Source of the DNA: Carcharhinus longimanus
Taxonomy: Eukaryota
DNA: 64,000 nt
Direction: 5' to 3'
NCBI GenBank assembly: GCA_030264375.1
Contig: JASCQW010000148.1
Location: 18,874,118-18,938,117 of the forward strand
Position 1 is the first letter of the stretch. Each line of letters opens with the position of its first letter. The notes beneath the pieces were generated by a model. The model did no database searches. It was given only the letters and a program-made list of their open reading frames with translations, and had not been told where the DNA came from. Shown in pieces: positions 3,449 through 57,400 of this stretch. The position numbers were made by a program, and so were the translations under genes.

Positions 3449-6400
3449 AGATACTAGCAACAGCCAGTCCTATGCTGGTCAAAGATCTCAAAACATACTC
3501 TGGACTGACTAACTCAGCATAGATTCTGACTACAACAAAAGTTAATTCTTATCCGGGTTATTGAATTTCTTTGGTACATGCTGCCTGTAGCCACCAAAAC
3601 AACTTTCAGATACTGTTTATGAAAACTTTGTTTTGGCTTATGAAAAGGCCTATTTCTGCTTGCATTGTAATTTCAAAGAATGCAATCAATTTTTCTAGCT
3701 AATCCCGGTATGTCTGCTGAGTTTAAAATGTGGTCGTTAGCTTTAAAAGCTTAGCATTTAAATGTAATTGCATAGGCAGATATCTCTTAAAATGAAGTCT
3801 TTGCATAAATGAAGCAAACAGAGCTAAGCATACATAGGATACCTTTGAGTAAAATGATATGCAATAGGGGAACAAGGATCGTCTGTATCAAGTTCCTTAC
3901 CTGAACAAACAAAGGTGGAACAATGCAAATCAACATTTGTATCACAACAGCTGAGCCTAAAAACACTTCCGTGGTGTCTAATGGCAAAACTGAAGCAACT
4001 CCGTTTTTTTTTATTAGTTATCCTTGAATAGAAACTACTGAATTCATTGCCAGTTGATACATTGCTGCCAGAAAATTTATTCAAGTTTAAAACCTAAAAG
4101 CTATCTCAAACTACAAATAGTCTTTACCTTCCAATTCTCCTTGATCTGGTCCTCCAGGAGGGCCGTTTCTTGTTGCTGAATGGCTCACTAGGGGGAATGC
4201 AATTGAATCAGCAGAGCACAGAGCCATTCGTAGTTTCTTCTTTGCGTCTCTAATAGGAAGAATAAAATGCAGGTTTTAGAGTATCGCTAAGCTAATGAAA
4301 GATAATAATTGTACAGCGCACTTCTCCTTAAAAAAAGCGAGGGCTCAAGTTTTAGGTGCTTATTCCCAGTAAATACAGTACAAACATTTCATGTTGGCCA
4401 AATTCAAATCTTCACAATTCAATCTGATATAATAGGTTGAAAAGTGGCATAACACACTGCAGTTAATTACTCCATTAAATTCCTGATCCTAGCACACTGC
4501 TGTAAGTGGAACACATTGAAGCAGTCCAGGCAAGTAATGTATCTGAACACCTTTCCACTGGTGACAGAGGCTTGGTAAAAAGTCTGACAACACCAAGTTT
4601 TAGTCCAACCGATTTATTTGATAGTAAACGCACAAGCTTTCGAGGTTTCCCTCTTCGTCAGGTGAATGGAGAGTTCTGGCCTCAGACAGAGCATATAAAG
4701 CAGAGGCTTGGGTCAGGGTGGCTTGATTCTTTCACAGTAGGAAGGAGCAAAGAATGGCAGCAGTCTACAAGTTCATATGGAACAAAAACATATTCATCCC
4801 AATAACCACTTTGCTGCTAACTGTTACTGCAGGCCAAAATAAACATTACCTAAAGGAGAATGTGGAGTCTTGAGTCTGAGCAGTCTGGCTGGCAGAATCT
4901 GGTAGATCATCAGCTGAAAGGTTTTGAAGAGTTTCATCACGTGGTGAATCATGCATGCTATCCTCTCCGATAGCCTCTGTGTAAAAGAAAATATCATACA
5001 TTATACATGGAAACATTTGCCTTTATGAAATTATAATAGAATTGACTAAGTTTTGGCGGTTACCAACAAATACAGATGGGAGATGTGGTACAGATCTGCA
5101 AATAAAACTCTAGTACTTCATGTGATGATTTAGGCATCAATATTTTTTAGGTTTTTGTATGAGTATCTAAATGACCTTTTAAGACAGCAACAGAACAATT
5201 TACAGATAGCAGAGAATTAACAACCTGCACTGACATTCACAAAAGTAGTTAATTATGAACAGTGCTGAGATAAAATCGAAAAGGAGTGGCTTGAATCGCA
5301 TTTCAAACATCGCTCGTTTTCTCCCCCTCCCTCACTGCACAACAATTTCTCCCTTCTACATCTGCTACAAGCATGTGACTCCTTTCTTTGGTAAAATTTC
5401 ACAGTGCTGTCATCATCTAGTAGCTTTTCTTCATCCAACAGCCAGTGGATGTTAGAATGTTGTATTACTGTGAGGAAATCGCAACTGAATCTGACCCTGA
5501 CCTCATCTAGAATCTACGTTACTTTTGGGAAGGGCTGCTGAAAGGCAAACTGCAGGGATAACTTTAGACAATTTTTATTTCCTGTCCAACCTTGTGGTAC
5601 TAAAACCAATTGTGTCAGCTCTGCTATTGCATCAACTGAAATTATCTAAAAGTATAGATGGACAGAACTAGTAACCTTACTGGTCAGTATGCTTTTGTTA
5701 GTATATGTTTTAACTTTCTAAACCAGAGGGGAGCAAGTAATATTGTTTTTTTTTAAATCTTTAATGATCATATTGCCTGAAAAATATTGCCATCTTTTAA
5801 CAAGTTGCATAATTTTCCAATTACTGATCAAAGACAATATATAACAGTTTAAATATAAATAGTTTAAATTAAGATTCTATGTCGAGACTGATTATATAGG
5901 TGCAGAATGGTAAATACAATAAATTATTTTCTGAAGGCATGTCAGTTCTTCAGTCTCTAGGTTATTCCAAGACAGCAGGTTGCTTTGAGCTGCCTGCCAA
6001 TGTCATTCTGAAATTAGCAACTAGGAGGTGGTCATCAAGCACATTTCAGTGCCCACTGTCCCTTTGATGTTTTCTATATTTTTGCAGCAAAACATGAGCT
6101 TCCCCAAGACCATGTCCCCTCCTCCCACGCCCCCTGTCAAGTTCATTTTCACATATTTAGTTTATTTTACATGCAGAGATGCAACTACAAACACTATTGC
6201 TCAAACAGGCAAAGAAAGAAAATCTCTATTTCAACAACGGTACTTTTTCTAGACCAAACTTAACAGGAACATGACCTACCTGTAACCTCATCACTGGCAA
6301 CTGCTTCACTGGGGCTGGCTCGTTTAATAGCACTTCTATATTTATCCAGGATATCCTCGGCGGCCTGAGCCTGTGCATTCAACCTGGGGATTGGCTCATC

Positions 6401-9400
6401 TGGTAACACACAGAAACAGTGTGAACAAGCAATTCTGACTGGTCTTAAAAAAAATAATTTATCATTTTGTTTTTTAAATCTTGTATAATGCTATGTTTTA
6501 AAAACAAAGTCAGCATTGAGGTTTTTAATGATTCCCTGCTGAATATTCTACGCCACAAAAAAAAATGCACAAAAGAATAGATGGTTTTTATTTTAACTCT
6601 CCCGAACTGAGTTCTTAAAATGTGATCAAATTCCAATCATGGCACCAAACAATTATATGTGCATTGTGGTCAGATTTTGCTTAAATAGCCATGCAAAATA
6701 ATCAAATATTTTTTCATTGACTGGATATTAATAATAGCTGTACCAGAACATCAGTTAAACAAACCCGAAAACGCTGGTCAATTTTGCCTGCAAACTATTC
6801 ATGAAAAACACTAGTGGGTTAGTTATTGAGCGGTTAAATTTTATGGATTAACTTTTGGGATCGATAACACCTTTACGCAAATTTAACAGCATACGAGATG
6901 GTCACCTGCGGCTTTGCTCGCAGGCAATCTAGAGCAAGATTAGAAAACACAATTTTGCATGCACAGAAACCAAGAAATTACGCCCACCACACATGCACAA
7001 GTGATCAGCAAAATGCAGCAGTGGGTATGAGCTCCCATGTCATCAAGATATGGAAATATAGAAAATGCTCTCACCCACCGCACAGCTCAAACATCAAAGC
7101 TCTAGGAATACAGCAGAAAGCAAGCGAGAATCCCTGAAAGTGGTGAGGTGAGATCTGTGCAAAGATGAAAAGTGGTTGCAGATACTGGAAAATGAAGAGG
7201 GGTAATACTTGAGATTTGCTTTGCTAGAATTGTTATAGGTATTGGTGGAGCGCATGGGGGAAAAAAAAGATCAAGATAACCAAGGGTCTCAAGTTGCTTT
7301 CCAAGGATTAGACATGCTGCTATGGTGCTCATTCTTTAGAAACTTCCCAGTGTGGGGAAATCTAAAGGTATTGCATTTGTCTTTAAGGATAGGGTTACAA
7401 TATTTACAAGAACAGTTGTGATTCAGTAAATATAAAATGTAAACCAATGTGTTTCACACTGTATGGACCAAGTGCCACATGGCAAAGCTAAAGCTTTTAT
7501 TTTTACAGATAAAAAATTCAAGTAAACATTCAATGCATCATATGAACAGGAATAAGCAATTCAGCCCCTTAAGCTAGTTACACCATTCAATCAAATCATG
7601 TCTAACCTATACCTTAACTCCATGCACTTGCCATTAATTGATATTCCTCAATAATCATGCCAATCAAAAATCTGTAGACCACAGTCTTGAAAGTTTCAAG
7701 TCACCTAGCATCTGCAGCCTAAAGAATGTATGATTTCCATAACAATTGACTGTTTTCTGACTTCACTCCTCAATGTTCAGTTTTCCACATTGTGATGTGG
7801 GAGTGACTGGCAAGGGCAGCATTCAACATCCATCTTGCGTTTGTCCTGAGATGGTAGCAATGGTTTTATCTTTTGAACTGCTGATGGCTGTTTGATATCA
7901 CTGATGAACTTTTTAGCTGTTTCAAAAGGGCAATTAAGAGTCAAAAAGATTGATGTGGGACTAGTGTCAATACGCAGGCCAGACTGGTAAGGGTTTCTTT
8001 CCCTGCAGCAACTTCAGAGTCAGTATTCCAGATACCATTTTTATTTCCGGGCATTAAATATATCCTATCATTTTAAACATCTCAAACTTCATGCAATGGA
8101 TTGTAGGCTGTGTGTACTTTATTATTCCCTCTCCTAGCTTCTAGAACAAGTTAAACTTGTGTGGACTGCCACTGAAATTCAGTCTTGAATTGAGTCAGTT
8201 AATCAGACCCCTTCTTCACAGTATTTCTACTGTGTTCATTTGTAGAATCACAAAATGGTTTGAGCACAGGTGGTGGTTATTTGGGCCAGTGTCTCTGTGC
8301 CAGTTCTCTGCAAGAGTAATTTAACTCATCCCATTCCTCTGCCCTTTCCCCACAGCCCTGCTTTTTTTTCCCCATCATCAGCTGCTTATCCAAATGATTT
8401 GGTTTGTAAAAAGTGAGTATGCGAAATTTGTCCAAATGAGCTGTTTCGTCTGAATATCTTAAGAGCTGCTGGGAACCAAACAATGTGCATTATAAGGAAA
8501 TACTGATCCTAACTGGTTGAACCTCAATTCTTTCAAAGTTACATTAAAGTTCAAGGTCTAATCCGCCCTGCCCTGCCTGCATTCAATGATGGCTGAGTAT
8601 AGTTTCTTGATCAAAAGATTACATTTTAGCACCTTTCTTTTTTAAATTAAATACCTGAACTTTTCACTTTGTTTCTGCTGAGCTACATTTTTAGCTTCCA
8701 AATTCCCTCAAATCAGTAATTGGTCAAGCTTTCCAATATATAAATAGTGTTTCTTTTTAACTTAAACACTGAGTTGTCTTTACAAAATGTTAACCTTTTT
8801 ATTCCTGGTTATTCCTATGATATCCATGCACTTAGGATTTTCATTAATTTTACTTATTAATGTCACAAGTATACTTACATTGACACTGCAATGAAATTGC
8901 TGTGAAAATCCCCTAGTTGCTACACTCCAGTGCCTCTTTGGATACAAGGTGGGAGAATTTTTTTTTAGGATGGCCAATGCACATAACCAGCAGTTCTCTG
9001 GGCTGTGGGAGGAAACCCACACAGACACAGGGAGAATGTGCAGACCCTGTACAGACAGTGGCCCAAGCTGGGAATTGAACCCGGGTCACTAGTGCTGACA
9101 GGCAGCAATACTAACCACTGTGCCACCGTGCTGCCCATGCATCCAGCATTTAGCTTCAAATTGTCACAAAATAAGTAGCACTACTTTCTTTAAATGCGTC
9201 ATGCCTGGTACTACTTGATACTTCTATTTGGCCCAAAAGCAATTTCAGTAAAGTTTTGTTTTAGGGATGGGGTGCAGATGGTGTGGGAATAAAATTATTT
9301 GCAAGTTTAGAGTTTATTAGTCACAAGTAAAGTTTATATTAACACTGCAATGAAGTTACTGTGAAATCCCCCTAGTCACTACACTATGGCACCTGTTTGG

Positions 9401-12400
9401 GTCAATGCACCTAACCAGCATGTTTCTCAGACTGTGGGAGGAAACCAGAGCACCTGGAGGAAACCCACACAGACACAGGGCAAACATACGGCCCCTGCAC
9501 AGACAGTGACCCAAGCTGGGAATCGAACCCGGGTCCCTAGCACTGTGAGGCAGCAGTGCGAACAACTGTGTCATTGTACAACCCACACAAAGGAGTCAAT
9601 CAAATCAGCTATTATTTTTCTGAATGGTGGAACTGGTTCAAAGCTCAACTGGCCTAGTTATGCTCTCTTTTTTTATTTTCTGATTAAATTCACCCTCTTC
9701 TGTTACTGTAGATCCTCTTCCTCCCAGTTGCTAATCAAAATGGCACAGCATGTAAATGCTGCTGTCAATCTGATAAGAAGAAGTTATCCCTTCCACACAA
9801 TACTGGATGTTTCTGACTCCAATTGTGGTTTGTGCCTGGCAAGCATGTGCCCCCTGATGAAGGGGATGCAAATTGTTGTACGATTGGCATGAGGAATTCA
9901 ATTGCAAAGCTTGAGACGTGCGTGGAAAACGTATTGCGTCGTGTATGGAAAACGTGTTGCAGTGAAGAATGTCACATAGCAAATTTCTGCAAACACCAAG
10001 ACTGCCTTAACTCACACATCAAAAACTGTTCAGTCAGTTTGTGCAAGTCTTAATTCCAAGGCACTTAAGAATTTTGATCCCATGCCAAACTAATGTACAA
10101 CCTACATTACCATCAAACTGGTTTTTTCCACATCCAGAGGAAAGTTCAGTACTTTGTACACATTGTGTAAACATAAGAGGTACAGACCCTCAAAAATATC
10201 TACTTCGTATCAGTAAAGCAAAGTACTTAACTTTATGTGTTTTCTATAACACGTCCAAAAATGATCTCATTGTGTGCTAATGTCACTCTTTGGTTGGAAA
10301 ATATTCTCATCTCATTCTTCATATAAATTAATCTTCTGTATCTTTGACAGATGTTTAACCAAGTAAAAATAAATGGATTTAATATACAAAGGAACAACGT
10401 AGAAGTTATTCCTCAGCATGTCTTTGCTCTGTTACTGATTATAGCTAAAAATCATGACTTCAAACATATGGTTAAGATTGACATAATGTCCATCTTATGC
10501 TGTGAATTTTTGTTCGCCCACATTCTAAACACACTTCCTGACTAGAAAATATGAAATAAATAAGAAGATATTTTTCCCTTGTTTACAGAGGAGACCTCCT
10601 TCTGTCAAGCAAAGAATAAAATTATTGTGTGGCGTTGCTAAGGCTACTTCTGCCCAAGTTTCTGTGATTGCAATGAGCTCATCAGTTAGTTGCAAGACCT
10701 TGCACGCTTGGCCTAAGGATGAGACAGTTTTTATGGCAGATACTGGAAGTAACTGCCATGGCTTGGGTGCAATGAACGTCTTAAAGCATTAGGGAAGCAT
10801 ATTGGTTTTCAGTCTGCCGAAAATATTGCCCATGGTACCAGTATAAAATTAGTGACAGAGTATTTACTTTCTTTGGGAATGATTCCCTAGTGGGGCCATA
10901 ATTCGTCACAGGGCTTAGGCCTGTGATCCAGATAGTGACCCTGAACTTCTTTTAAGTGCGATAGATCATTGTTGGTGCTAGTTGTTGGTTGGAAATTCAC
11001 TTTGCTGGAAAATCTTTTTATTTGAACTTTTTGTAGATGGTCAACAGTAACTGTTTAAAAATATACAGACGTGCTTAAAGAGGTTATTAAAATAGTCCAC
11101 TAAATTAAAGTACAAAGGAATTTGACACAAATGTTGATGCTTTGTAAGCTAATATTGCACAGTATAATTTTAACTCAGCGGTAAATCTTATGTACACCAT
11201 AAATGGTTTCCAATAATATTACAGTTTTCTGTCAGCTCCTAATTAGCTATATTGACACTCACCTGTTGAATAAACACTTTTTTGTGGTAAGAGTTACCAT
11301 ATAATTTATTTATGTTTCCACTGCTGTAGGTGTGTTAGAAATTTTCCAAGTTTTTATTTTAGAACAGCTGCAAGCATGTGAAAACCTCAAAGCAAATGTG
11401 TTTCTAAATGAGTGAAAATGCACAAGAAATTTGCCCACATGGACATGGATCAGGCAGGGTAACTCTTCAGAGCTGCTGCTGCTCTTATGTAAAAAGTGCA
11501 TCCATTGCAATCTCAGCCAAGTAATGCTGGTGATCTAGAGGAAGCGTGGAGTAATTACCTGGTCATCCATGATTTACATATTGCTGAAAAGAGAGACAGG
11601 TTGTTGAAGCTTTTTTCACCTTGAACTCATCAGGACAAATGCAAGAGTATCAAATTTCAAACAATCACAACAATTTATATTACAGGCAGAAAAGGCAGCA
11701 TGGGCAAGTTGGCTCCAATTGATTGATGTGGAGATGCAGGCATTGGACTGGGGTGGACACAGTAAGAAGTCTCACAACATCAGGTTAAAGCCCAACCGGT
11801 TTATTTGGAATCATGAGCTTGCGGAGCGATGTTCCTTGCTCAGGTGAGTGGCGTGTTCCACCTGAGTAAGGAGCAGTGTTCCAAAAGCTTGTGATTCCAA
11901 ATAAACTTGTTGGTCTTAAACCTGGTGTTGTGAGACTTCTTACTGCACCAATTGATTGAGATGTTGCCATGGAGAACATAATGGGGTACTAAATCTCGCC
12001 AAGCTTCCAGATAATTCAAAAAAGATACAAAGCTTGAACATATTCCTTTTGCTTACAGATGTTACCCTGGATATGAAAAGTCTAAATGAGCCACATTATG
12101 AGTTCAACTAATGATCTTAAATAGGTTGTTAGCATAGCTGTGAGCAGAGTCAAGATTGTTCAGAAAATACCGCCAATCGCAGAATCACATCTAACCAGTG
12201 CTGGCTGGTTGAATTTTGTCTATTTTATTCATTCGTGGGACATGGGCGTCGCTGGCTATCCAGCATTTATTACCCATCCCTAGTTGCCCTTGCACTGAGT
12301 GGTCTGCAAAGCCATTTCAGAGATAAAAGCAAAATACTGTGGATGCTGGAATCTGAAACAAAAACAGAAAATGCTAGAAAATCTCAACAGGTCTGACAGC

Positions 12401-15400
12401 ATCTGTGGGGTAAGAATACCACCAACGTTGGGAATACTTTGGGCAAAAAGATCAACAACTTGTGATATACCTCTCTCAGAAATTGACCTCAGTAAATTGA
12501 GGGAGACGTGAAACAGGCTACTTTGATTTTACACTGTGGCCCAGTTTCAAAATTACCCGCAATATAATTCCATGCATTCAAACATGTGCAGCCAGCCAAT
12601 TTTAACTTGACATGCCCATGTATGTTCTTGAATTTGTTTGCTTTAGTCCTAGGAATTAAGACTTGACAAATTCTGATGCAAGCGCTAATTATTGCCGTGA
12701 AATGGATTCCTGCTTTGTTTGGACAGGAGTTCAAATAACTGGAGTTATCTGTTATGTGTAAAGCTTACATTAGACTAAATTGTGGCCAATTCCCTCTTTG
12801 TCATTTTCTTTGTATATGTTTCAGTCCTTAGTAGAGATCGTATGGGATTGCCAGTAGAAGCGCTGGGCGAATGGGCCAGGAAATGGCAAATGGAATTTAA
12901 TGTTGACAAGTGCGAGGTGGTCCACTTTGGTAGGAATAATGGTAGGAAGGATTATTACTTACGTGGAGAAAAACTGCAGCAGGCGACGGTGCAGAGGGAC
13001 CTCGGGGTNNNNNNNNNNNNNNNNNNNNNNNNNNNNNNNNNNNNNNNNNNNNNNNNNNNNNNNNNNNNNNNNNNNNNNNNNNNNNNNNNNNNNNNNNNNN
13101 NNNNNNNNTTAGCATGGCCAATCAACCTAACCCCCACACCTTTGGACTGTGGAAGGAAACCAGAGCACCTGGAGGAAACCCACACAGACACGATGAGAAT
13201 GTGCAAACTCCACACAGACAGTAACCAAGCTGGGAATCAAACCCAGGTCCCTGTGCTAACCACCGTGCTACCATGCCAGTAAATTAAAATTTCCGGAACA
13301 TCCTTCTACATTTAATTAAAAAACAATAACTTTTTATTTACAGATTCATAATTTCCCAATCTCAGTGGTCCAAGCTCTCATCTATGATGCTTTTGTGGGG
13401 AATAGAAGACCACCAGGAGTCTGCCAGGCAGTGTTTTTACTTATCACTGTCGATCTGGCTTATTGACAAGATCAGCTGGCACTAGGACAGCTGGCTGGCT
13501 GGCTTACTGGCTCTTTGTTTCCGGTGCAACAAATAAGTACACAGCACACTGAATGTAACAGAGGGACAATAAGCAGACATTATACTTAAACTTCACTCAT
13601 CAGTACAGTAGCACTCCTAATGTTTTAGGCTCTGCGGTGTTTTGTAAGTGGGTAGACCCACAGCACTGACCTATTGGGCAGTGGCTGACAGGATCAATGC
13701 CAATGAGCGCACAAGCCTCACTGTTGCTGGTGAGCCTCTAGTTGATGTTGAGGGAATGCTTTTTGGCAAGCTCTCCCTGGTTCAGCAGCTGGAATTCCAA
13801 TGGATGCGTGCAGAAGCTGTGAACTGACAAATCAGTGAATCCCATATATGAGCAAAGAGAGGAAGAGTGTGCTTCTGGAGAATTTTAATTATCTGCTCAT
13901 TTCCCTTATTCACCCAGAGGAACTTTATAGAGGATGATTGTGATTCCATAATGTTAGGTTTTTGTATTTAGTTGAAAAGGGAAGCCTCCAAACAAATCAA
14001 CTTTGAATTTACATTTTCGGTCATATTCCTTCTTGTGCGATTCCATTTCTTAAAATTTCCATTTTAGTTGTTGAATCATCTCAATGCCTTAAGCCAGTGG
14101 AGAGCTCTCCAAATCAGAGCAAAAAGATCCAGTCACCAAGGCTCTTCTGGACAAAAGATCTACCCCCAACAACTTCTAATATTATCCTGCCTAAAAGGGC
14201 AAAGATGACCTCAAATGAATGCAACAGCAAGTGCAGATCAACCATGATCAAGGAAGACAATAGCATTTGCAGAAAGCATGTGGCTAGACGAATGTAGGAA
14301 AAAGAGACTAGGAGAAAACCCAAAGTCATTGTGGTGAATGGATGAAATAAGGACATTAGCCACACCAATATTCAATTCAGGATTTAGGTCACAAAAATAT
14401 CCAATATAAAGTCCAGATAAAACCAATTTTTTCACGTTTTCTGTTTGAACACTCAAAGACCATATGTACTTCCATATTGACCACAAATTTGAACAAACTG
14501 ATCAGTCTTTGTTGAGTAAAGCATCAGTTCTCAGCTGCCTTAATAGACAAAGCATCCAATGATGCTGGGAAATGAGTGTGTTTGGGGTGGAGGAAGAGAT
14601 AAGAAAAAGAGAAAACAAAAAGAACTGAGAGAAGGAGGAGATAGACTCATAAGTCAGAGTCATAAAGGTTTACAGCATGGAGGTAAGTCAGGAGGGAGAT
14701 GCAGAGTTTCACTATTCCTGTGCATAATTCATGCTGCTTTAACAGGAGTACTTGTTAGAAGGACTCCCTGAGCCCAGGGAGTAAATAAAATTAGAAACAA
14801 GAAAAAAAACGACTACTGGACGATGCCTGGCAGGATTCAGGATTTGTTATATCTATATCAACACCCACTTCTGACATTCAGTCACATCATATGCATCAAC
14901 TCAGACTTATCATCAAGAACTATTACTCATTGTATAAACAGTTAGCAATAACAATTTGCATTAAAAGAAAACTTTAAATGGCCAACAAAGCCTCCCAAAG
15001 CACTTCACAGAAGTGTAACAGACTATTATGAAGTCAAGCAAGATTAAAGATAGATCAAATTAAGATAAACCCATTGAGATTTTAATTACTGCTGAGATCA
15101 CTTCCCCATATTCCAGGAAAAGCTACAGGATGACCAAACTCTCCTAATAGTCTGGAAAAAAGTTACATCCTCTTGTAACCAAAAGAACACTGGGAAATCT
15201 CAGCAGGCCTGGCAGCATCTGTAAGGAGAGAAAAAGAGTCCAGATGACACTTTGACAAAGGGTCATCTGGACTCGAAATGTCAGCTCTTTTCTCTCCTTA
15301 CAGATGCTGCCAGACCTGCTGCAATTTTCCAGCGTTTTCTCTTTTGGTTTCAGGTTCCAGCATCTGCAGTATTTTGCTTACATCCTCTTGTATTTGTGGC

Positions 15401-24400: not shown

Positions 24401-27400
24401 TGGTGGTCCTACAATAATTAACCTTCCAGACTGGAGGTGTATGTTAGCACCAGATTTAGCGATTACTGTGCAAAGTCAGGCACTTTTGAATCACAGATAC
24501 AGATTATATGTTTGTGCTACATGGTTAGTGTAATTTCCATGCATGTGAAGTAAATACTTCTTTAAAAAAGCAACTAAAAAGCTCTGATGTGTAGTTTTTT
24601 TTTAAAGATATTCCTGTTTCATGCGGGTGTTATTTGTCTTTGTAGACCTCATTCACCATTCGTTATGTAAGGTAGGATCAGCCAACCTTGCATGGCCTGA
24701 AACCTTTCCTGTGCACCATCTTCTTTGTCTTTTTCTTGTTTATCTTTCTTCCTGAAGGAAATAGGAGCTAAAGAGAAAATATACCGTATTACAAAAACAA
24801 AATAACTTCATCGCATGCAGGATGAAGAAAATCATGGCTTTAACCAAACTTGTGGTGAAGTGTAATTGACAGCAATGAAGGTTTTAGTGTTAGATAACAT
24901 TATTTACACTATTATACTAGTTAAGCTGATATTCAGCATAAATGTTCAGTTGCATTTCTACCTGATAATTAACTGGATATACACGTCAGTACAGTTATTT
25001 TAGTAAACACTACCTCATTCAAAATTGCAATGTTTTTTTCTAAACTGAAAATTTTAAGTTGTGGATGACAAAGATTTTTAACTAATGCTAAGGATAACTT
25101 GTTTTTGGAAGTAAGCAAAACTGCAGAACATACTAAGTGTGAATTCTTTGTACCTGGACCCTAACAACTGAGAAGGGGCTGCTAACAATGGTATTAGGGG
25201 CATTACTGACTTTAGGTCGGAATAAGCCAAGTTACCGATACGAAAATCCAGTCAGTTGCACCCAAAATTCTTGGGAAAATCCCAGGCTGTTGATTTATAA
25301 ATGTGCCAAAGTAGTTGACAAGCAGTAAAACAAGGAATGCAAACAAGCAGCCTTTTCATTTTTACAGGTGAGAGTGAAACAAATCAAAATGCACTGAGCT
25401 GCCACAGGCAAATGCACAAGAAAGTGATATAGATATAGTTAAGCTAGAAAAAAGATTCTATGTTTCAAGATGCTGATAAATTCTGAAGTAAAAGAACTCT
25501 GGACCAGTTATTTATCTCATGTGCTGTGTCAAAAAATGAGAATAATCCCAAGACTGACCTTTAGGAATAGCAGACACAAATCGTTTCTTCCACCAGGATC
25601 TGCTACGATCTGACTTCTCATCATCGCTGTCCTTCCTATCCTCCCCCTGCACAAAAGGGATGCAAAAAGGTATTTGGGGGAAAATGGATTGAGGGATGTG
25701 AGAAACAAAGCAACACAAGGGATTTTTTGAAATTTGGAACCAGCCAAGACGAATCACAATTTGGTCAACTTATCTGTTTGTGAATGCAAATGTGTGGACT
25801 TACCACCACAGTTTTACATAATACGTACACAATTCTAGTTACATGTTTATAGTGCAGTTTAGTAAAGCTTTAGTTGACTTAATTTTCCACTATACTGCAG
25901 TTAATTCCTGAGTGTCAAGTTGTTTCTTTCCAAGGGTAAATGATTGCATCCAAATTTGAAGTCTTTGAAGTGGTTTTATTCCATATACCCATGTTCGCCA
26001 GCCAACGTCATTTTATGAGCACCCATCAGTGTTTATTGTATTACTTGAGTTTCCAATCAAAATTATGTTGTACAATGTAGAGTGCCTCAAATCCGGCTGT
26101 CCAAAAACTGGAGCTCTCCAGACATTTTTCTAATACTCCATGCATCCATTTTGAAAGTAAAATTTAAAATAACTTACCTAAACAATTTGGCTAGGCGCAT
26201 CACATTGGTGCAGTGTAGTTCCAAACTTGTTTACCAGCTTTGCTGCTTTTATATCCCATACTCCAAGCAATTCTTGACCTCACCCAACCCAGTTCAGCCC
26301 AAACTGCCCATGGTCCAAAGAGCCTGATCCAAAATCCGGCAATATCTGAAATCCAACAGTCTAGGCCCTGAGGTTGTCGGATTAAAGATATTGTCCCCAT
26401 ATTAGTAACATAAGGTGACTGAAAGAGTGTTGCATTTGTATACTGCTTCCTCATGCAATGAATTTCTTTGGTATCTTATAAAGAAGAAATATTCAACATA
26501 TGACATAATTAAATGACAAGTCCCAGTTGGAAAAATATTTGTTTGAAGTATCAAGGAATACTTAAACAGTGAGATTACACCTTACTAGGGAATCTTTGCT
26601 TGGTGATGAAGTTGGTCCAGGGGGTCCAGCTGGCGCTGCTCCAGCTGCAAATATTTCCTCATTCGCCATCCGTCTGATGCCTGGTGCATTCCATCCAGGA
26701 TCACTCATTGGTCGTCGAGATGACGAAACGATATCAGAGCTTCTGCTGCGCACTAGTCTTTCTGGAAAGGAATGTCTCTGTTTGAGCAGCTCAGCTTCAG
26801 TTTGGCAACATATGTGAGACCCAAAAGCTGGTAATCGGGCATCAGTGCCTCCTATTGCACCTTCCAGTATTGGAGGATCTGGTGGTGGGTGTGATGGTCT
26901 TGCATAGTGTACTTTCGGTCTGACTATTGACGGTATGTTTGAAGCTGTGAATTTTGGAAAAACAAAACAAAACATGAATCGCAGCTTACAGGTTGATCCA
27001 TGTAAACTAGGTTTGTCCAAACATCCAGATAAACAAAATGTCCGTTACGCATGAAATCAGAATGTACAAATAATGACATTCCTTGCTGAGGAATAGAGGG
27101 AAAACATTTCAGTATTCTAAATCTCATGTCAGAAACATACAATTTACTGAACATACAAATTTGTTAGGCAAATGTGGTCCACAGAATCACGGATGGATAG
27201 ACAAAGTAGGTGACCATTCAACTCGATTCTTTGAAAGAGCTATCCAACTAGTCTTACTCCCCTACTCTTTCCCCAGAGTTTCATACATATTTCCAAGTAT
27301 TTATCAAATTCTCCAAGTAACTATTCAATCTACCACCACCCTCACTATAGTTATTTTGCAGATTAGTATAATTTGCTGCTTAAAGGTTTCCACATCACTG

Positions 27401-30400
27401 GTTCATTTTTGTCAATGGTTGCACTGTGGTTAGCACTGCTGCCTCACAGCACCAAGGACTCGTGTTCGATTCCTGGCTTGGGTCATTGTGCGTGTGGAGT
27501 TTTTATGTTCTCAGTGGGTTTCCTCTGGGTGCTCCAGTTTCCTCCCACAGTCTCCCAATACTGGTTAGGTGCATTGGCCATTCTAAATTCTCTGTGTACC
27601 TGAAAAAGTACCAGAATGTGCGACAGGGGATTTTCACAGTAACTTCACTGCAGTGTTAATGTAAGCCTATTTGTGACACGAATAAACAAACTTTTAAAAA
27701 GCTTTAAACCCTAAAAACTTATGCTTGTGGGTTTCCTTCTGCCACTGGAAAGAGTTTTTCCCTTAGCTGCCCTTCATAATTGTGAACACTTTTCATCAAA
27801 TCTCCTGTTAAGCTTCTTTGCCTGAAGGGAAACACTACCAATTTTTCTTGCCTGTGTGTAACTTGCACCTTCCATCCTTAGTACCATTCTAGTCGACCTC
27901 TGTTATACCCTAAGGCCTTGACATCCTGAAGTGTCATTTTCATAATGATTTTCCTTTCCTTTCTTTTATATACTGCCTCTATTTATAAAGTGAAGGATCT
28001 TATATGCCTTCTCAACTTGTCCTGCCAGCTTCAAAAATATAGGTACACACACCCTCAGCTCTTTCTGTACCTATACACCTCAAGAATTATACCACTGGGT
28101 TTATTTCTTGCTTATTCATTCATAGGATGTAGGCATTGCTGGCAAGGCTAGCATTTATTGCACATCTCGAACTGTGCCTCAAGAAAGTAGCGGTGAGCCT
28201 TGAATACAATGAATGAGTGGTTTGAAGTTAAGAGTTAACCACATTGCTTTTGGGTCAGGAGTCACATATAGGTCAGACAAGGTAGGGACAGCAGATTTTC
28301 TTTCTTGAAAAGACATTAGTGAATCAGATGGGTTTTTAAACAATCCAATCAAGTCAATGTGACCATTACTTAGACCAGTTTTTATTGCAGATTTATTTAA
28401 TTCACTGAATTTACATTCCCTGCCTGCTGTGGTAAGATTTGAACTCGTGCCTCCAGATTATTAATGCAGGATTACTAGGCTGGTGGCATTACCACTTTTA
28501 TATTTATATTCCCATACTTGATTCTTCTTATCAAAATTTGTTACTTAACATTTCTCTGCGGTAAATTTTATCTGTCATATTCAGACCGTCCTTTTACCAG
28601 TTTATGTCCCTCTGAGGTCTGTTACCATCTCCCTCTGCATCTCTGAGCTCCATGTCATCTGTAAACTCCAAAATTATGCCCTTTATATCCAATGCCAAGT
28701 CATTCATATATATCAAAATGAGCAGTGATTCAAGTACTGAGTCCAGGAATATGGCACTATGCACTTTGCTCTGTTCTGGAAAAAAAACCTTTCACCACTG
28801 CTCTCTACTTATAAATGACCTAGGTGAGGGTGTAGAAGGATGGGTTAGTAAATTTGCAGACGACACTAAAGTCAGAGGAGTTGTCGACAGTGAGGATGGA
28901 CGTTACAGTTTGCAGAGGGACACAGATAAGCTGCAGAGCTGGGCTGAGAGGTGGCAAATGGAGTTTAATGTGGAAAAGTGTGAGGTGATTCACTTTGGAA
29001 NNNNNNNNNNNNNNNNNNNNNNNNNNNNNNNNNNNNNNNNNNNNNNNNNNNNNNNNNNNNNNNNNNNNNNNNNNNNNNNNNNNNNNNNNNNNNNNNNNNN
29101 TGGTGAGTACACTGTATTTCATCAAAGCCTCTGCTCCTAAGGTACAGACAGTAATCGCCATGTTTCCAACAATCAAATACTTTGAGCATTTGATGGTTAA
29201 AATCACTTTGGAAAAAGGAAATAACTGTACCGGAATAGAAACACAAGCTTGTACTAATTTGCTTGGTGTTGTACGGCCAAGGTTCCTCATCAGATCTTGT
29301 GACCAAAGGGTTCAGTTCTGTGAAACATCTAAGTCCAGTCTGCTAGTGATAGGAAGAAGATGTTAGGCATCTATTTCAGCAGATGTTGCCCAGTGAAGGG
29401 TAATGATGCCGTGCATCTGGGCCTAGGCAGCGCCGTAAGTATGAAACATATTTTAATCACCATTTTCAATGTTTTCCCATTATTTACTGAAGTAACAAGT
29501 AAAATGTTCCAACTGTTTCCCTGTTTATGTCGAGGTTGCTGCTAATTTCATTGCTCCTGGGAAAACATTATTAGGGAATTGTTAATAGCGCTGTCATAAC
29601 AGCAATGGCATAATTACCTCACTGTTCTAAAGCTTCAGCTCCTCCGTTTTATCAGACGATTCATTATAACATATTTTGACAGTTTATGGTGCTGAACTGT
29701 TGGAACTAGGACAAATGTGACTATACTTCACTGCGTTTGAGATGCAATCCTCAAAACATTTACAAAGTTGTGGATTATTTAGTGTTCTTTCGCTGCATTA
29801 GCTTAACCCCCTGCCCTTTCTTTTCTATCATAAGAGGAAAAATAAATCAATTCAAGCGAGGAAAGCCTTTTTTTCCCTTTAGGTTCCTTGCTGACCTTCA
29901 AATTCTTTTCCCCAACAAACTATTGGATTGTTTGGAGTGATACCCAACAGTTTAAAAAAAAACGCAAACAAGTTGGTAACTGTGGAGAATGATGAAACAA
30001 AGATACTTAACGTTGTTGAATGAATGACTCTAAGTATAGGAAAGACATTGATTGACAAACTGGAAACAGTACAAAGAAGATTTACGAGGATATTGCCAGG
30101 ACAGTGAGAGCCTTTTTCCTCAGATGGTGATGGCTAACACGAGGGGACATAGCTTTAAATTGAGGGGTGATAATTATAGGACGGATGTCAGAGGTAGGTT
30201 CTTTACTCAGAGGGTAGTAAGGGCGTGGAATGCCCTGCCTGCAGCAGTTGTGAACTCGCCAACTTTAAAGGGCGTTCAAATGGTCAGTGGATAGGCACAT
30301 GGATAACAGTGGAATAGTTTAGGTTAGAGGGTCATTAGATTGGTTCCACTGGTTGGCGCAACATCGAAGGCCGAAGGGCCTGTACTGCGCTGTAATGTTC

Positions 30401-54400: not shown

Positions 54401-57400
54401 TGAGGAGCTTGATGTCCACTGCACTTTCATAATAAACCCTTCCAATCTTAACAGAAAAAATATTTTACAAAATTTTAAAATAACAAAATTCTAAAATAAG
54501 GGGTGGCATGGTGGCTAGCACTGTTGCCTCCTAGCACCAGGGACCCAGGTTCAATTCTAGCCTTGGGTAACTCTCCATGTGGAATTTGCATGCTCTCCCT
54601 GTGTCTGCATGGGTTTCCTCCAGGTGCTCTATTTTCCTTCCGTAGTCCAAAGATGCACAGGTTAGGTGGACTGGCCATGGGAAATGTATAGGGTTAAGGG
54701 GATATGGTGAGGTAGAGGGCCTGGGTAAGATACTCATAAAAAGTCTGACAACACCAGGTTTTAGTCCAACCGATTTATTTGNNNNNNNNNNNNNNNNNNN
54801 NNNNNNNNNNNNNNNNNNNNNNNNNNNNNNNNNNNNNNNNNNNNNNNNNNNNNNNNNNNNNNNNNNNNNNNNNNNNNNNNNTTGGACTAAAACCTGGTGT
54901 TGTCAGACTTTTTACTGTGTTTACCCCAGTCCAACGCCGGCACATCCACATCATAAGATACTCATGTCAGGGAGTTCGTGCAGACTTGATGGGCCGAATG
55001 GTCTTTTCTGCAATGTAGGGATTTTATGAGTCAATGTCAAGTACAACAAATACAAATATCCAGGGCACTTGATTCATATCAAAACAATTTGTAATATTCT
55101 ATATTTGCAGAATAACTCTTGTACAGTTAAGTAAAACAGCCCTGTCTCCTACCTATTTGCAGTCGATTCTTTTTGTTGGCTGGGGTGGTTGCAGGAGACA
55201 GCTGGGGTGTGCTGGAGGGAGTCAGCTCAAGGCTATTGCTCTTCCCTGTTCTGGGCTGAGGAACATTAATGATAAGGTTCTCCAAAGCCATCTTGTCCTC
55301 CTCTCTTAACAGCTCCCCTGACCTTACATGTCGTGCAAAAGTCACCTAGATAAAAAAGGTAATGTTTAATTTTAGTCAATAAAAAAATCTATTACACCTA
55401 CTACAGACCTATTAGAATGCAACAAAGTGAAATAAACGTCAATAGTGGTTGTTGACTGTTCAAAAAAAATTAGAAGTTTGCAAGCAAAATATTTTTTCTA
55501 TTCTTTCACTGAAGACAAACTGTTTTTAAGGTTTCTTTGCCACATTATGTTCAGGCTGAGATTAAGGGTGAAAGACAAAAATCCATTCTAAGCTTCTGCC
55601 AATCTAAGATGGCAATAGGATGAATTTACAAGCAACTCCAGTTGTCATTCCCTCGTAACACCCGCCTTCGGGAGAGTGACTAGCTGTGGCTTGGCACAAA
55701 TGGTCCAGATAAGATTAAATGAAACAGCTGACTGGTGAGGCACAACTATAATGATGACAATACATAACCCATTACGTGAATGGACAAATTGATGACAAAC
55801 GGATTTCAACATAGTCAAGACACAGGTCATACACTTCAGGCCTAAAAAAATCAGAGAAACTTTCTAAATTATGAAAATTTAGAGGCAGTAGAGGTTCAAA
55901 AACATTTAGAAGTCCACATACGTTGATCATTAAAATGACTGGAATGTTGACCTTGATATTTGGAAGATTTAAATTCCAGAGATTAGAAGTCATGCTACAG
56001 CTGCACAAAGTCCTAGTTTGCCCACACCTGAAGTACAATGTTCAATTCTGGACATCACATCTTAAGAAGAATGTATTGGTTTTGAAGAGTGTGCAGAAAA
56101 GAATTGGTAGAATGATAGCTGGACTTCAAGGATTGAATGACAAGGAGACAAAGTACACAAATTTCCTTGGAAATTAGAAGATTATAGGGTAATTTGATCA
56201 AAGTTTTCAAGACATTAAGGAGAACAGTGGTTAGGTAGCAACTAAATTAGGAAAAACTTCTAACTTTACAAAAATGTTGCATGCCCAGACTTCAGGCACC
56301 CTCATATCAGCATTCAGAGTTTCTTGTGTGGTGATTTGCTTTACCCAACTTCAATGTGTATCAGGAGGCAGTATTAACAATAGCTGCCTGCATTCCTTCT
56401 CTCTGAACTTCACTGGATATCAATCTGCTTAATTTGGTACATCATTTGTGGGGACTGTTGCTTACTGTTGGGACAGCCAGATTAAGTTTTCATCTGCTGG
56501 TTTAGCGTTCAATTTCTTGCACACTGAAGCAATGAGAATGGAGACTTTAACGTGGGGCATAAACAAAACCATTTGGAGCAGAAAATGAGGAATTTTTGAA
56601 GTTTGTTGTAAATAATAAATAAGGTCACCCAAGGAGCTTCATGTGAACATTAAAGCTATTAAAATATAGTTTGTGGTGCAAAAGCTTGTTATCAACGCTT
56701 GAGCAACTGTCTTTCCTGTTCCGTGAGAGGGGAAAAAAGCCTTTTGAAAAAAATCAAGGACAGTGGCTACTATAACCTACTCAGATGACAAAACAAACAC
56801 GGATGGAAACATGCATTCTTCTGGTAAGTGATCAACCGCATGTGAAACCATGTTTTATGGAAAAAAGTCTAGGAATTTACTGGCTGGAAATTACTAATTG
56901 AATTTTTAGAAAGACTAAAGCCACATTCAGAATGGGTGTGCGCATGCACATGCATGCGGTGGTAGAAATCTGAAGCACTCAAGTTTTACTTGTACCAGGA
57001 CAATAAATCTTCTTTCTTTTTAAAAACTCAAGGAAACCCAATCATTTGTGTCTTTTATGGTTGCAGCGCAGAATTAGTTGAACATTCATTTTTTTTTTAA
57101 AAAGTTCTGTTGTGGCCATATGAGGAGTAGGGCCATTTGACTCCCCCTCCTCATCCAATGTAACACTAAATATGGGACTGGAATGCCTTCAGCACATGGC
57201 AATAAAGTGGAGACATGTGCCTGGATCAAACTCTGTCACCGCCTTGTCAAGAGTTAAAAGATGTACTGTTTGCAGGAAACCTGGTATGCATCTACCTTCT
57301 TAACTCAGAAGCAATCAGGCTCAGCATAAAGCATAAAGGAGTGGGAAATAACAAACATTACACAAGAAAGGTAATGTGAAGATAGAACAACACCTACATG

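Follow-up and report, generated by a model that had tools for sequence, protein, structure and literature searches.

Does an intron of GAPVD1 in the shark Carcharhinus longimanus harbor, on the strand opposite to the gene, the remains of a second gene related to Kyakuja-Dileera-Zisupton (KDZ) transposases and to HMGXB3, and if so, was this a transposon or a gene that the host had put to use? A preliminary description of the DNA proposed an ancient, intron-bearing relic of this kind from splice-site words and peptides stitched across frameshifts. We analyzed a window of 64,000 nucleotides (nt), positions 18874118–18938117 of its contig, and extended the searches to the whole genome (2.68 Gb). 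The sequence in question is a block at 8394–11560 of the window that lies antisense inside a GAPVD1 intron of ~18 kb, between exons at ~24.7 kb and 6.4 kb. It makes up ~17% of that intron, part of whose size the proposal had ascribed to the relic. Sequence comparison gives modest support to the view that the block is a real KDZ/HMGXB3-type relic, which we consider probable. We lean, tentatively, toward a decayed single-copy remnant of an intron-containing KDZ-family gene that resembled HMGXB3 more than the Zisupton of fish, was kept by the host for a time, and was then lost; here the family, the exon model, and past selection are inferred.

The reference sequences were assembled from two sources. 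A motif scan of metagenome contigs yielded 14 loci, five of which had usable Zisupton-type frames; these five led to at least 120 relatives and a 49-sequence Zisupton profile. The HMGXB3 profile combines the host gene with four of the six HMGXB3 orthologs, which were all that a homolog search returned. Scores come from our own frameshift- and intron-aware aligner, which was calibrated on decoy stretches from the same genome and gave 438 bits on a split natural locus as positive control.

As to the family (KDZ/HMGXB3-like, intron-bearing, dead), the preliminary description was probably correct, yet the strongest support comes from a proposed core exon at 10138–10222 that it did not name. In one frame this exon gives L-Y-x-L-C-x-H, and a shift by one base gives K-Y-L-L-R. 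Two related species, E and F, are without one base at 10192, and both halves of the exon thus share one frame. In this E/F state, ungapped comparison to the HMGXB3 core gives 21.5 bits, which only a single one among 6534 background blocks attains. Identities are highest with host HMGXB3 (11/23), followed by 9 with three orthologs and 4–8/23 with 60 Zisupton-type cores. The exon keeps the C and H that are invariant in the family (64/64 members) and the K found in 63/64. Before ortholog data entered, three profiles had already given a best path via the acceptors at 10137 and 10588, and the likely intron at 10223–10588 would connect the two motif halves in the correct phase. Along the spliced path in the E/F state, a 52-position core profile gives 29.5 bits (0/70 decoys; Gumbel p ~8e-4), a mixed profile 30.4 bits (0/70), and the Zisupton-only profile 20.6 bits (11/70).

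Further pieces follow in the order expected on HMGXB3. By hhalign, three unedited single-frame pieces fall at residues 44–67, 174–187, and 362–367 of the 586-residue HMGXB3 profile. Of the peptides named in the preliminary description, only the CGxC piece at 9797–9835 beats decoys (2/300 reach its score; hhalign E 0.011), while those at 10628–10744, 11251–11277, and from 11363 onward do no better than decoys. The piece at 8420 is marginal (28/300 decoys); the best local match of its segment falls on positions 15–39 of the HMGXB3 profile, the same region that hhalign finds with an E of 0.36. When scored as a colinear chain with the indels shared among species taken into account, the pieces are reached by 1–3/229 decoys with the HMGXB3 profile and 4–12/229 with the mixed profile, as compared with 7–84/229 and 8–95/229 for the unedited sequence. 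GC content alternates along the block, being 0.43–0.44 in exon-like blocks and 0.27–0.31 in spacers.

The splice-site words on which the proposal was built exist (acceptors ending at 9711, 10350, 10588, 11235, and 11362; donor at 11287), and all quoted peptides are found across three frames in the order given. The acceptors had been presented as a regular series of strong sites, which is unremarkable because, by a simple splice matrix of our own, four acceptors in 9600–11500 score >8 when 2.6 are expected; two of the five named sites score only 5.9 and 5.3. The core that had been stitched over two frameshifts at 10628–10700 does not score; the C-x-H...K core is carried by the proposed exon at 10138–10222. 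The stretch at 10351, originally described as an exon, is more likely intron because a single motif is divided on either side of it and its GC content of 0.29 is intron-like. An early match of this stretch to the HMGXB3 linker was dropped, since its order conflicts with the core exon. A candidate exon at ~9180–9250, between two short interspersed elements (SINEs), was in register by eye and was dropped for want of a score (191/300 decoys). The stretch between the CGxC and core exons is too short for the family's linker of 160–170 residues and was therefore deleted or is partly intron; one copy of the tandem duplication within it is absent from species B and F.

The block is also present in related species. 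Contigs of species B–G cover it at 95–99% identity, and those of species H do so in short pieces; no joint was seen. Of the five related species seen whole, D, E, F, and G each have their own frame-breaking indels in the proposed exons, and in species D the donor at 10223 is without its G. The eight indels of species E are all common to species F, and the one at 9850 alone is common to G, as judged from gap totals. An intact orthologous copy had been suggested as a check; under none of the models that we tried is the frame unbroken in any species.

Changes between species hint that the frames may once have been under selection. The variant tables list 40 of 133 and 40 of 138 entries, and all counts of changes given here are among the changes listed. 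Codon positions were counted in five frames, each set either by homology or from the preliminary description, and the sample is small; three changes in 9856–9885 and four after 10732 were left out on account of uncertain frame. Thirteen of 21 changes fall at third positions, six at first, and two at second; silent changes number 11. Three nulls matched for base composition or CpG give p 0.005–0.013 for the third-position excess and 0.016–0.023 for silence. The excess persists under the CpG-matched null (p 0.013), and GC at third positions is not raised. In species F alone, 12/16 changes are third-position, and addition of the uncertain-frame changes gives 14/24 (p 0.010) with the three and 16/28 (p 0.008) with all seven. 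This bias supports the proposed frames independently of the protein match, and a copy dead since its insertion should not show it. The AT-rich stretch at 10223–10588 has few changes (4 against 16 expected in species F, 3 against 9 in species D) and includes an open frame of 66 codons that follows the acceptor at 10350. Either non-coding conservation or a locally low mutation rate may account for the few changes.

The label "transposon" is not established, because neither a terminal inverted repeat (TIR), a target-site duplication (TSD), nor a second copy was found. DNA and protein searches of the host's own genome recover the block only as itself; they reveal no dispersed copies, at a sensitivity so low that the same searches by family miss even HMGXB3. 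Two other loci (L022 and L023) share merely 55–75 nt with the block, without coding similarity. This AT-rich piece, at 11101–11173, is 79–85% identical to the two loci and also matches extra contigs in related species. Among 25 of 83 inverted pairs listed, none bounds the block as a TIR, and no 8-bp TSD was seen. Both ends of the block abut later repeats, the dispersed repeats at 8233–8393 and 11560–12429, so decay or truncation can hide such features. As TIRs, TSDs, further copies, and catalytic residues, which would mark an active Zisupton, were mostly not found or not clear, we classify the block as a probable relic and not as a defined element.

HMGXB3 is a vertebrate gene that combines a CxC4 domain with a Zisupton-like core, and the host's own copy is intact elsewhere in the genome (G000:C109:59240974-59269172, minus strand; L049–L053), with nine 3′ exons and 624 codons without a stop. 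One of its exons was found by the CxC4 search, with a best match of 85% to a skate protein, in line with a host among the cartilaginous fishes. One host HMGXB3 exon matches Zisupton cores by tblastn with an E of 6e-8, and Pfam CxC4 also links HMGXB3 and Zisupton. HMGXB3 is reportedly derived from Zisupton, a view attributed to Bohne et al. in 2012. It is regarded as a chromatin- or DNA-binding factor. The block shares with it the order CxxC, CGxC, C-x-H...S-K-Y-L-x-R, and D-L-L-x-S, the single copy, and splicing, which in the block is proposed. Unlike HMGXB3, the block is disrupted in this genome as in those relatives that were seen whole, is nested antisense in GAPVD1, has a much shorter linker, has lost the invariant Glu, and displays no HMG box that we could see. 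The HMGXB3 intron after C-x-H-Q is absent from the block, and two introns of the relic are absent from HMGXB3; the alternative acceptor at 9727, anchored on the Tyr before CGxC, falls within ~1 base of an HMGXB3 intron position, which could be chance.

Zisupton resembles the block in its core C, H, and K, in the CxC segment upstream, and in having a multi-exon transposase gene, as PMC9297572 describes. It differs in having TIRs and 8-bp TSDs, according to PMC12730594 and PMC11343200, and the block has no second copy; the block's score with the 49-sequence Zisupton profile is within decoys. Fungal Kyakuja and Dileera, which PMC12730594 places in one transposase group with Zisupton, were represented in the comparison by the Pfam KDZ model. 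PMC11343200 reports the CxC plus KDZ structure and also relic genes without ends, and PMC3424704 treats vertebrate genes derived from Zisupton.

Two further loci came to light in these comparisons. A metagenome contig (L043:407-4996) carries an intron-less Zisupton-type frame of 1530 residues with CxC4, Ulp1 protease, PHD, and SprT-like domains. In the host genome, a second HMGXB3-like piece (L078, G000:C43:67418238-67418459, minus strand) is intron-less and spans two HMGXB3 exons. Its genome-wide E is 0.25, it scores 36 bits on our profile, and 19.5 kb hold no further colinear piece; it is possibly a processed fragment or a chance match.

Several results weigh against our reading. Without editing, the region scores 23.8 with the Zisupton profile, compared with 21.2 ± 3.2 for decoys (n = 60), and its HMGXB3 score is reached by 8/152 and 11/152 decoys, which places it in the top 5–7%. 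Even in the E/F state, whole-profile scores are reached by 3/75 and 2/75 decoys, and the 52-position core sub-profile was selected after the match had been seen. The core exon has lost the family's invariant E, and no R-D can be made out beyond that position. The downstream pieces at 11236–11286 (D-x-x-H) and from 11363 (N...E) are within decoys with three profiles, the downstream motifs being those described for KDZ transposases or seen in our own alignment. Counts of interspecies changes are among the changes listed, as stated above. The rate of change is higher in exon-like blocks (4.8%) than in the intervening intron (1.1%). Frame breaks at ~9836–9855 and 10610–10622 remain in species E, where the indels seen explain all 36 gap bases; these breaks suggest death before the species split, which fits badly with the third-position excess.

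Blind database searches point in the same direction. No KDZ or CxC match was obtained with Pfam, a check that the preliminary description had suggested, in 12 single-frame pieces of the block. A phmmer search of one frame from 9712–11520 against 1.84 billion proteins gave a single match, a nonribosomal peptide synthetase, which is spurious because its repeated modules summed chance matches. A word search with the 10589 frame retained 0/15 candidates, and an Atlas search with two pieces gave no usable match and none ≥0.9. The Pfam negatives are weak, because the KDZ model (PF18758) also misses 5/5 natural Zisupton proteins and the CxC4 model finds 2/5. Two faint, unrelated Pfam matches in the 12 pieces were put down to chance. 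Family searches of the host's own genome gave 0 matches for KDZ, 3 for CxC5, 4 for CxC6, and 2 for CxC4, all noise except one HMGXB3 exon. A Zisupton-only hidden Markov model and tblastn found nothing in the region; tblastn with the host's own HMGXB3 reached a best E of 11 there and also did not recover the block genome-wide. Pattern scans of viral contigs and the host genome for other KDZ lineages provided no usable member, and a search for loci related to HMGXB3 found none.

These negatives suit the idea that the block is ordinary old intron sequence, or another gene's relic, whose motifs arose by chance because six frames were open to choice and frameshifts and introns could be placed freely. 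The lack of splice-site enrichment, the unedited scores inside the decoy tail, and the several profiles and penalty sets that we tried for homology scoring are also what chance would leave. Yet an indel in two other species brings the two parts of the motif that is best conserved in the family into exact register, the bias in codon position does not depend on the protein match, three pieces stand in order, and GC alternates; we therefore regard chance as unlikely. An old HMGXB3 duplicate turned pseudogene is very improbable. It would explain why HMGXB3 is the best match and, unless by coincidence, the position of acceptor 9727, but tblastn would need much greater similarity to find the block, and the introns disagree in both directions.

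A KDZ transposon copy that was never useful to the host, inserted once before the species split and decayed neutrally while its ends and sister copies eroded, is a close competitor, although we hold it less likely than not. It shares all the homology evidence, and the frame breaks common with species E, the several changes that resemble CpG-type decay, the two or more intron positions that differ from HMGXB3, and the multi-exonic Zisuptons described in PMC9297572 are all in keeping with it. Against it stand the third-position excess that survives the CpG-matched null, the failure to find a second copy, TIR, or TSD, and a core that resembles a domesticated gene more than any of 60 cores of transposon type. 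In our judgment the balance tips slightly toward a gene that the host kept and then lost.

If the block was indeed kept by the host, its history may be envisaged as follows. A Zisupton-type element, comprising a cysteine-cluster DNA-binding part and a cut-and-paste catalytic core, would have inserted antisense in the GAPVD1 intron in a common ancestor of the species sampled. It would have been spliced on the plus strand, and selection would have maintained its product, which, like HMGXB3, probably bound chromatin or DNA. The gene would then have died through small indels, a larger deletion inside it, and insertion of two SINEs, and today the block would encode no protein and be removed with the host intron by splicing. 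A bolder version holds that cartilaginous fishes had a second domesticated gene of the Zisupton/HMGXB3 clade, antisense in GAPVD1, which was selected after the species began to split, was lost in parallel, and may be intact in distant sharks, rays, or chimaeras; this we consider rather unlikely.

A true relic would extend KDZ/Zisupton traces in cartilaginous fishes beyond HMGXB3 and afford a rare view of a lineage between mobile Zisuptons and HMGXB3. One survey (PMC4350176) records Zisupton transposons among vertebrates in teleosts only and none in cartilaginous fishes. A gene kept and then lost would make a datable case of transposase domestication and subsequent loss, whereas a merely dead copy would be a paleogenomic footnote. 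Among papers open without subscription, we found none on shark GAPVD1 introns or on HMGXB3 together with Zisupton or KDZ, and the accessible portions of PMC12062965, PMC7325037, and PMC5753468 hold nothing that bears on the locus.

Table 1 Features of the proposed relic and its host intron, in window positions.
Feature	Positions	Strand	Basis and remarks
GAPVD1 exon (presumed) downstream of host intron	6263..6399	-	Acceptor side 6399; lower limit is open-frame end; GAPVD1 motifs
Candidate N-terminal cysteine-cluster segment, weak	8394..8590	+	CxxC at 8420 and a further Cys pair near 8570; starts at dispersed-repeat end
SINE-like insertion, later than block	8836..9149	.	Repeat searches
Second SINE-like insertion, same family as 8836–9149 copy	9288..9587	.	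Repeat searches
Proposed exon relic ending in CGxC motif that closes CxC4-type domain	9712..9838	+	Decoys, hhalign; alternative acceptor 9727
GC-rich stretch, uncertain reading	9839..10137	+	Contains 23-nt tandem duplication 9911–9956
Proposed core exon relic, C-x-H...S-K-Y-L-x-R register	10138..10222	+	Frame broken by extra base at 10192; family's invariant Glu lost
Likely intron	10223..10588	+	Weak donor, strongest acceptor of region; contains the 10351 "exon" of the preliminary description
Proposed exon relic, D-L-L-x-S motif	10589..10748	+	Phase fits upstream exon; then frame change into open frame of the preliminary description; candidate donor 10749
Candidate exon, D-x-H...H motif	11236..11286	+	No better than decoys
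Candidate last exon, GC 0.43	11363..11559	+	No better than decoys; ends at repeat block
Open frame containing GAPVD1 exon (presumed) upstream of host intron	24652..24807	-	GAPVD1 motif

The minus-strand exons of the host gene, which we take to be GAPVD1 from its motifs, lie at ~26.6–27.0, 25.5–25.8, 24.7, 6.3–6.4, 5.0, 3.1, 1.8, and 0.8 kb. Minus-strand frames across the block contain no recognized GAPVD1 exon. Beyond the block, two repeat copies at 11760–11945 stand head-to-head and form an 87-nt inverted repeat (84%). An Rfam match to MIR841 at 11777–11927 coincides with these two copies, lies far under the cut-off, and was rejected as spurious. The window contains five 100-N gaps, and open frames at 12800–13008, 28616–29140, and 55875–56177 resemble the tails of long interspersed element reverse transcriptases.

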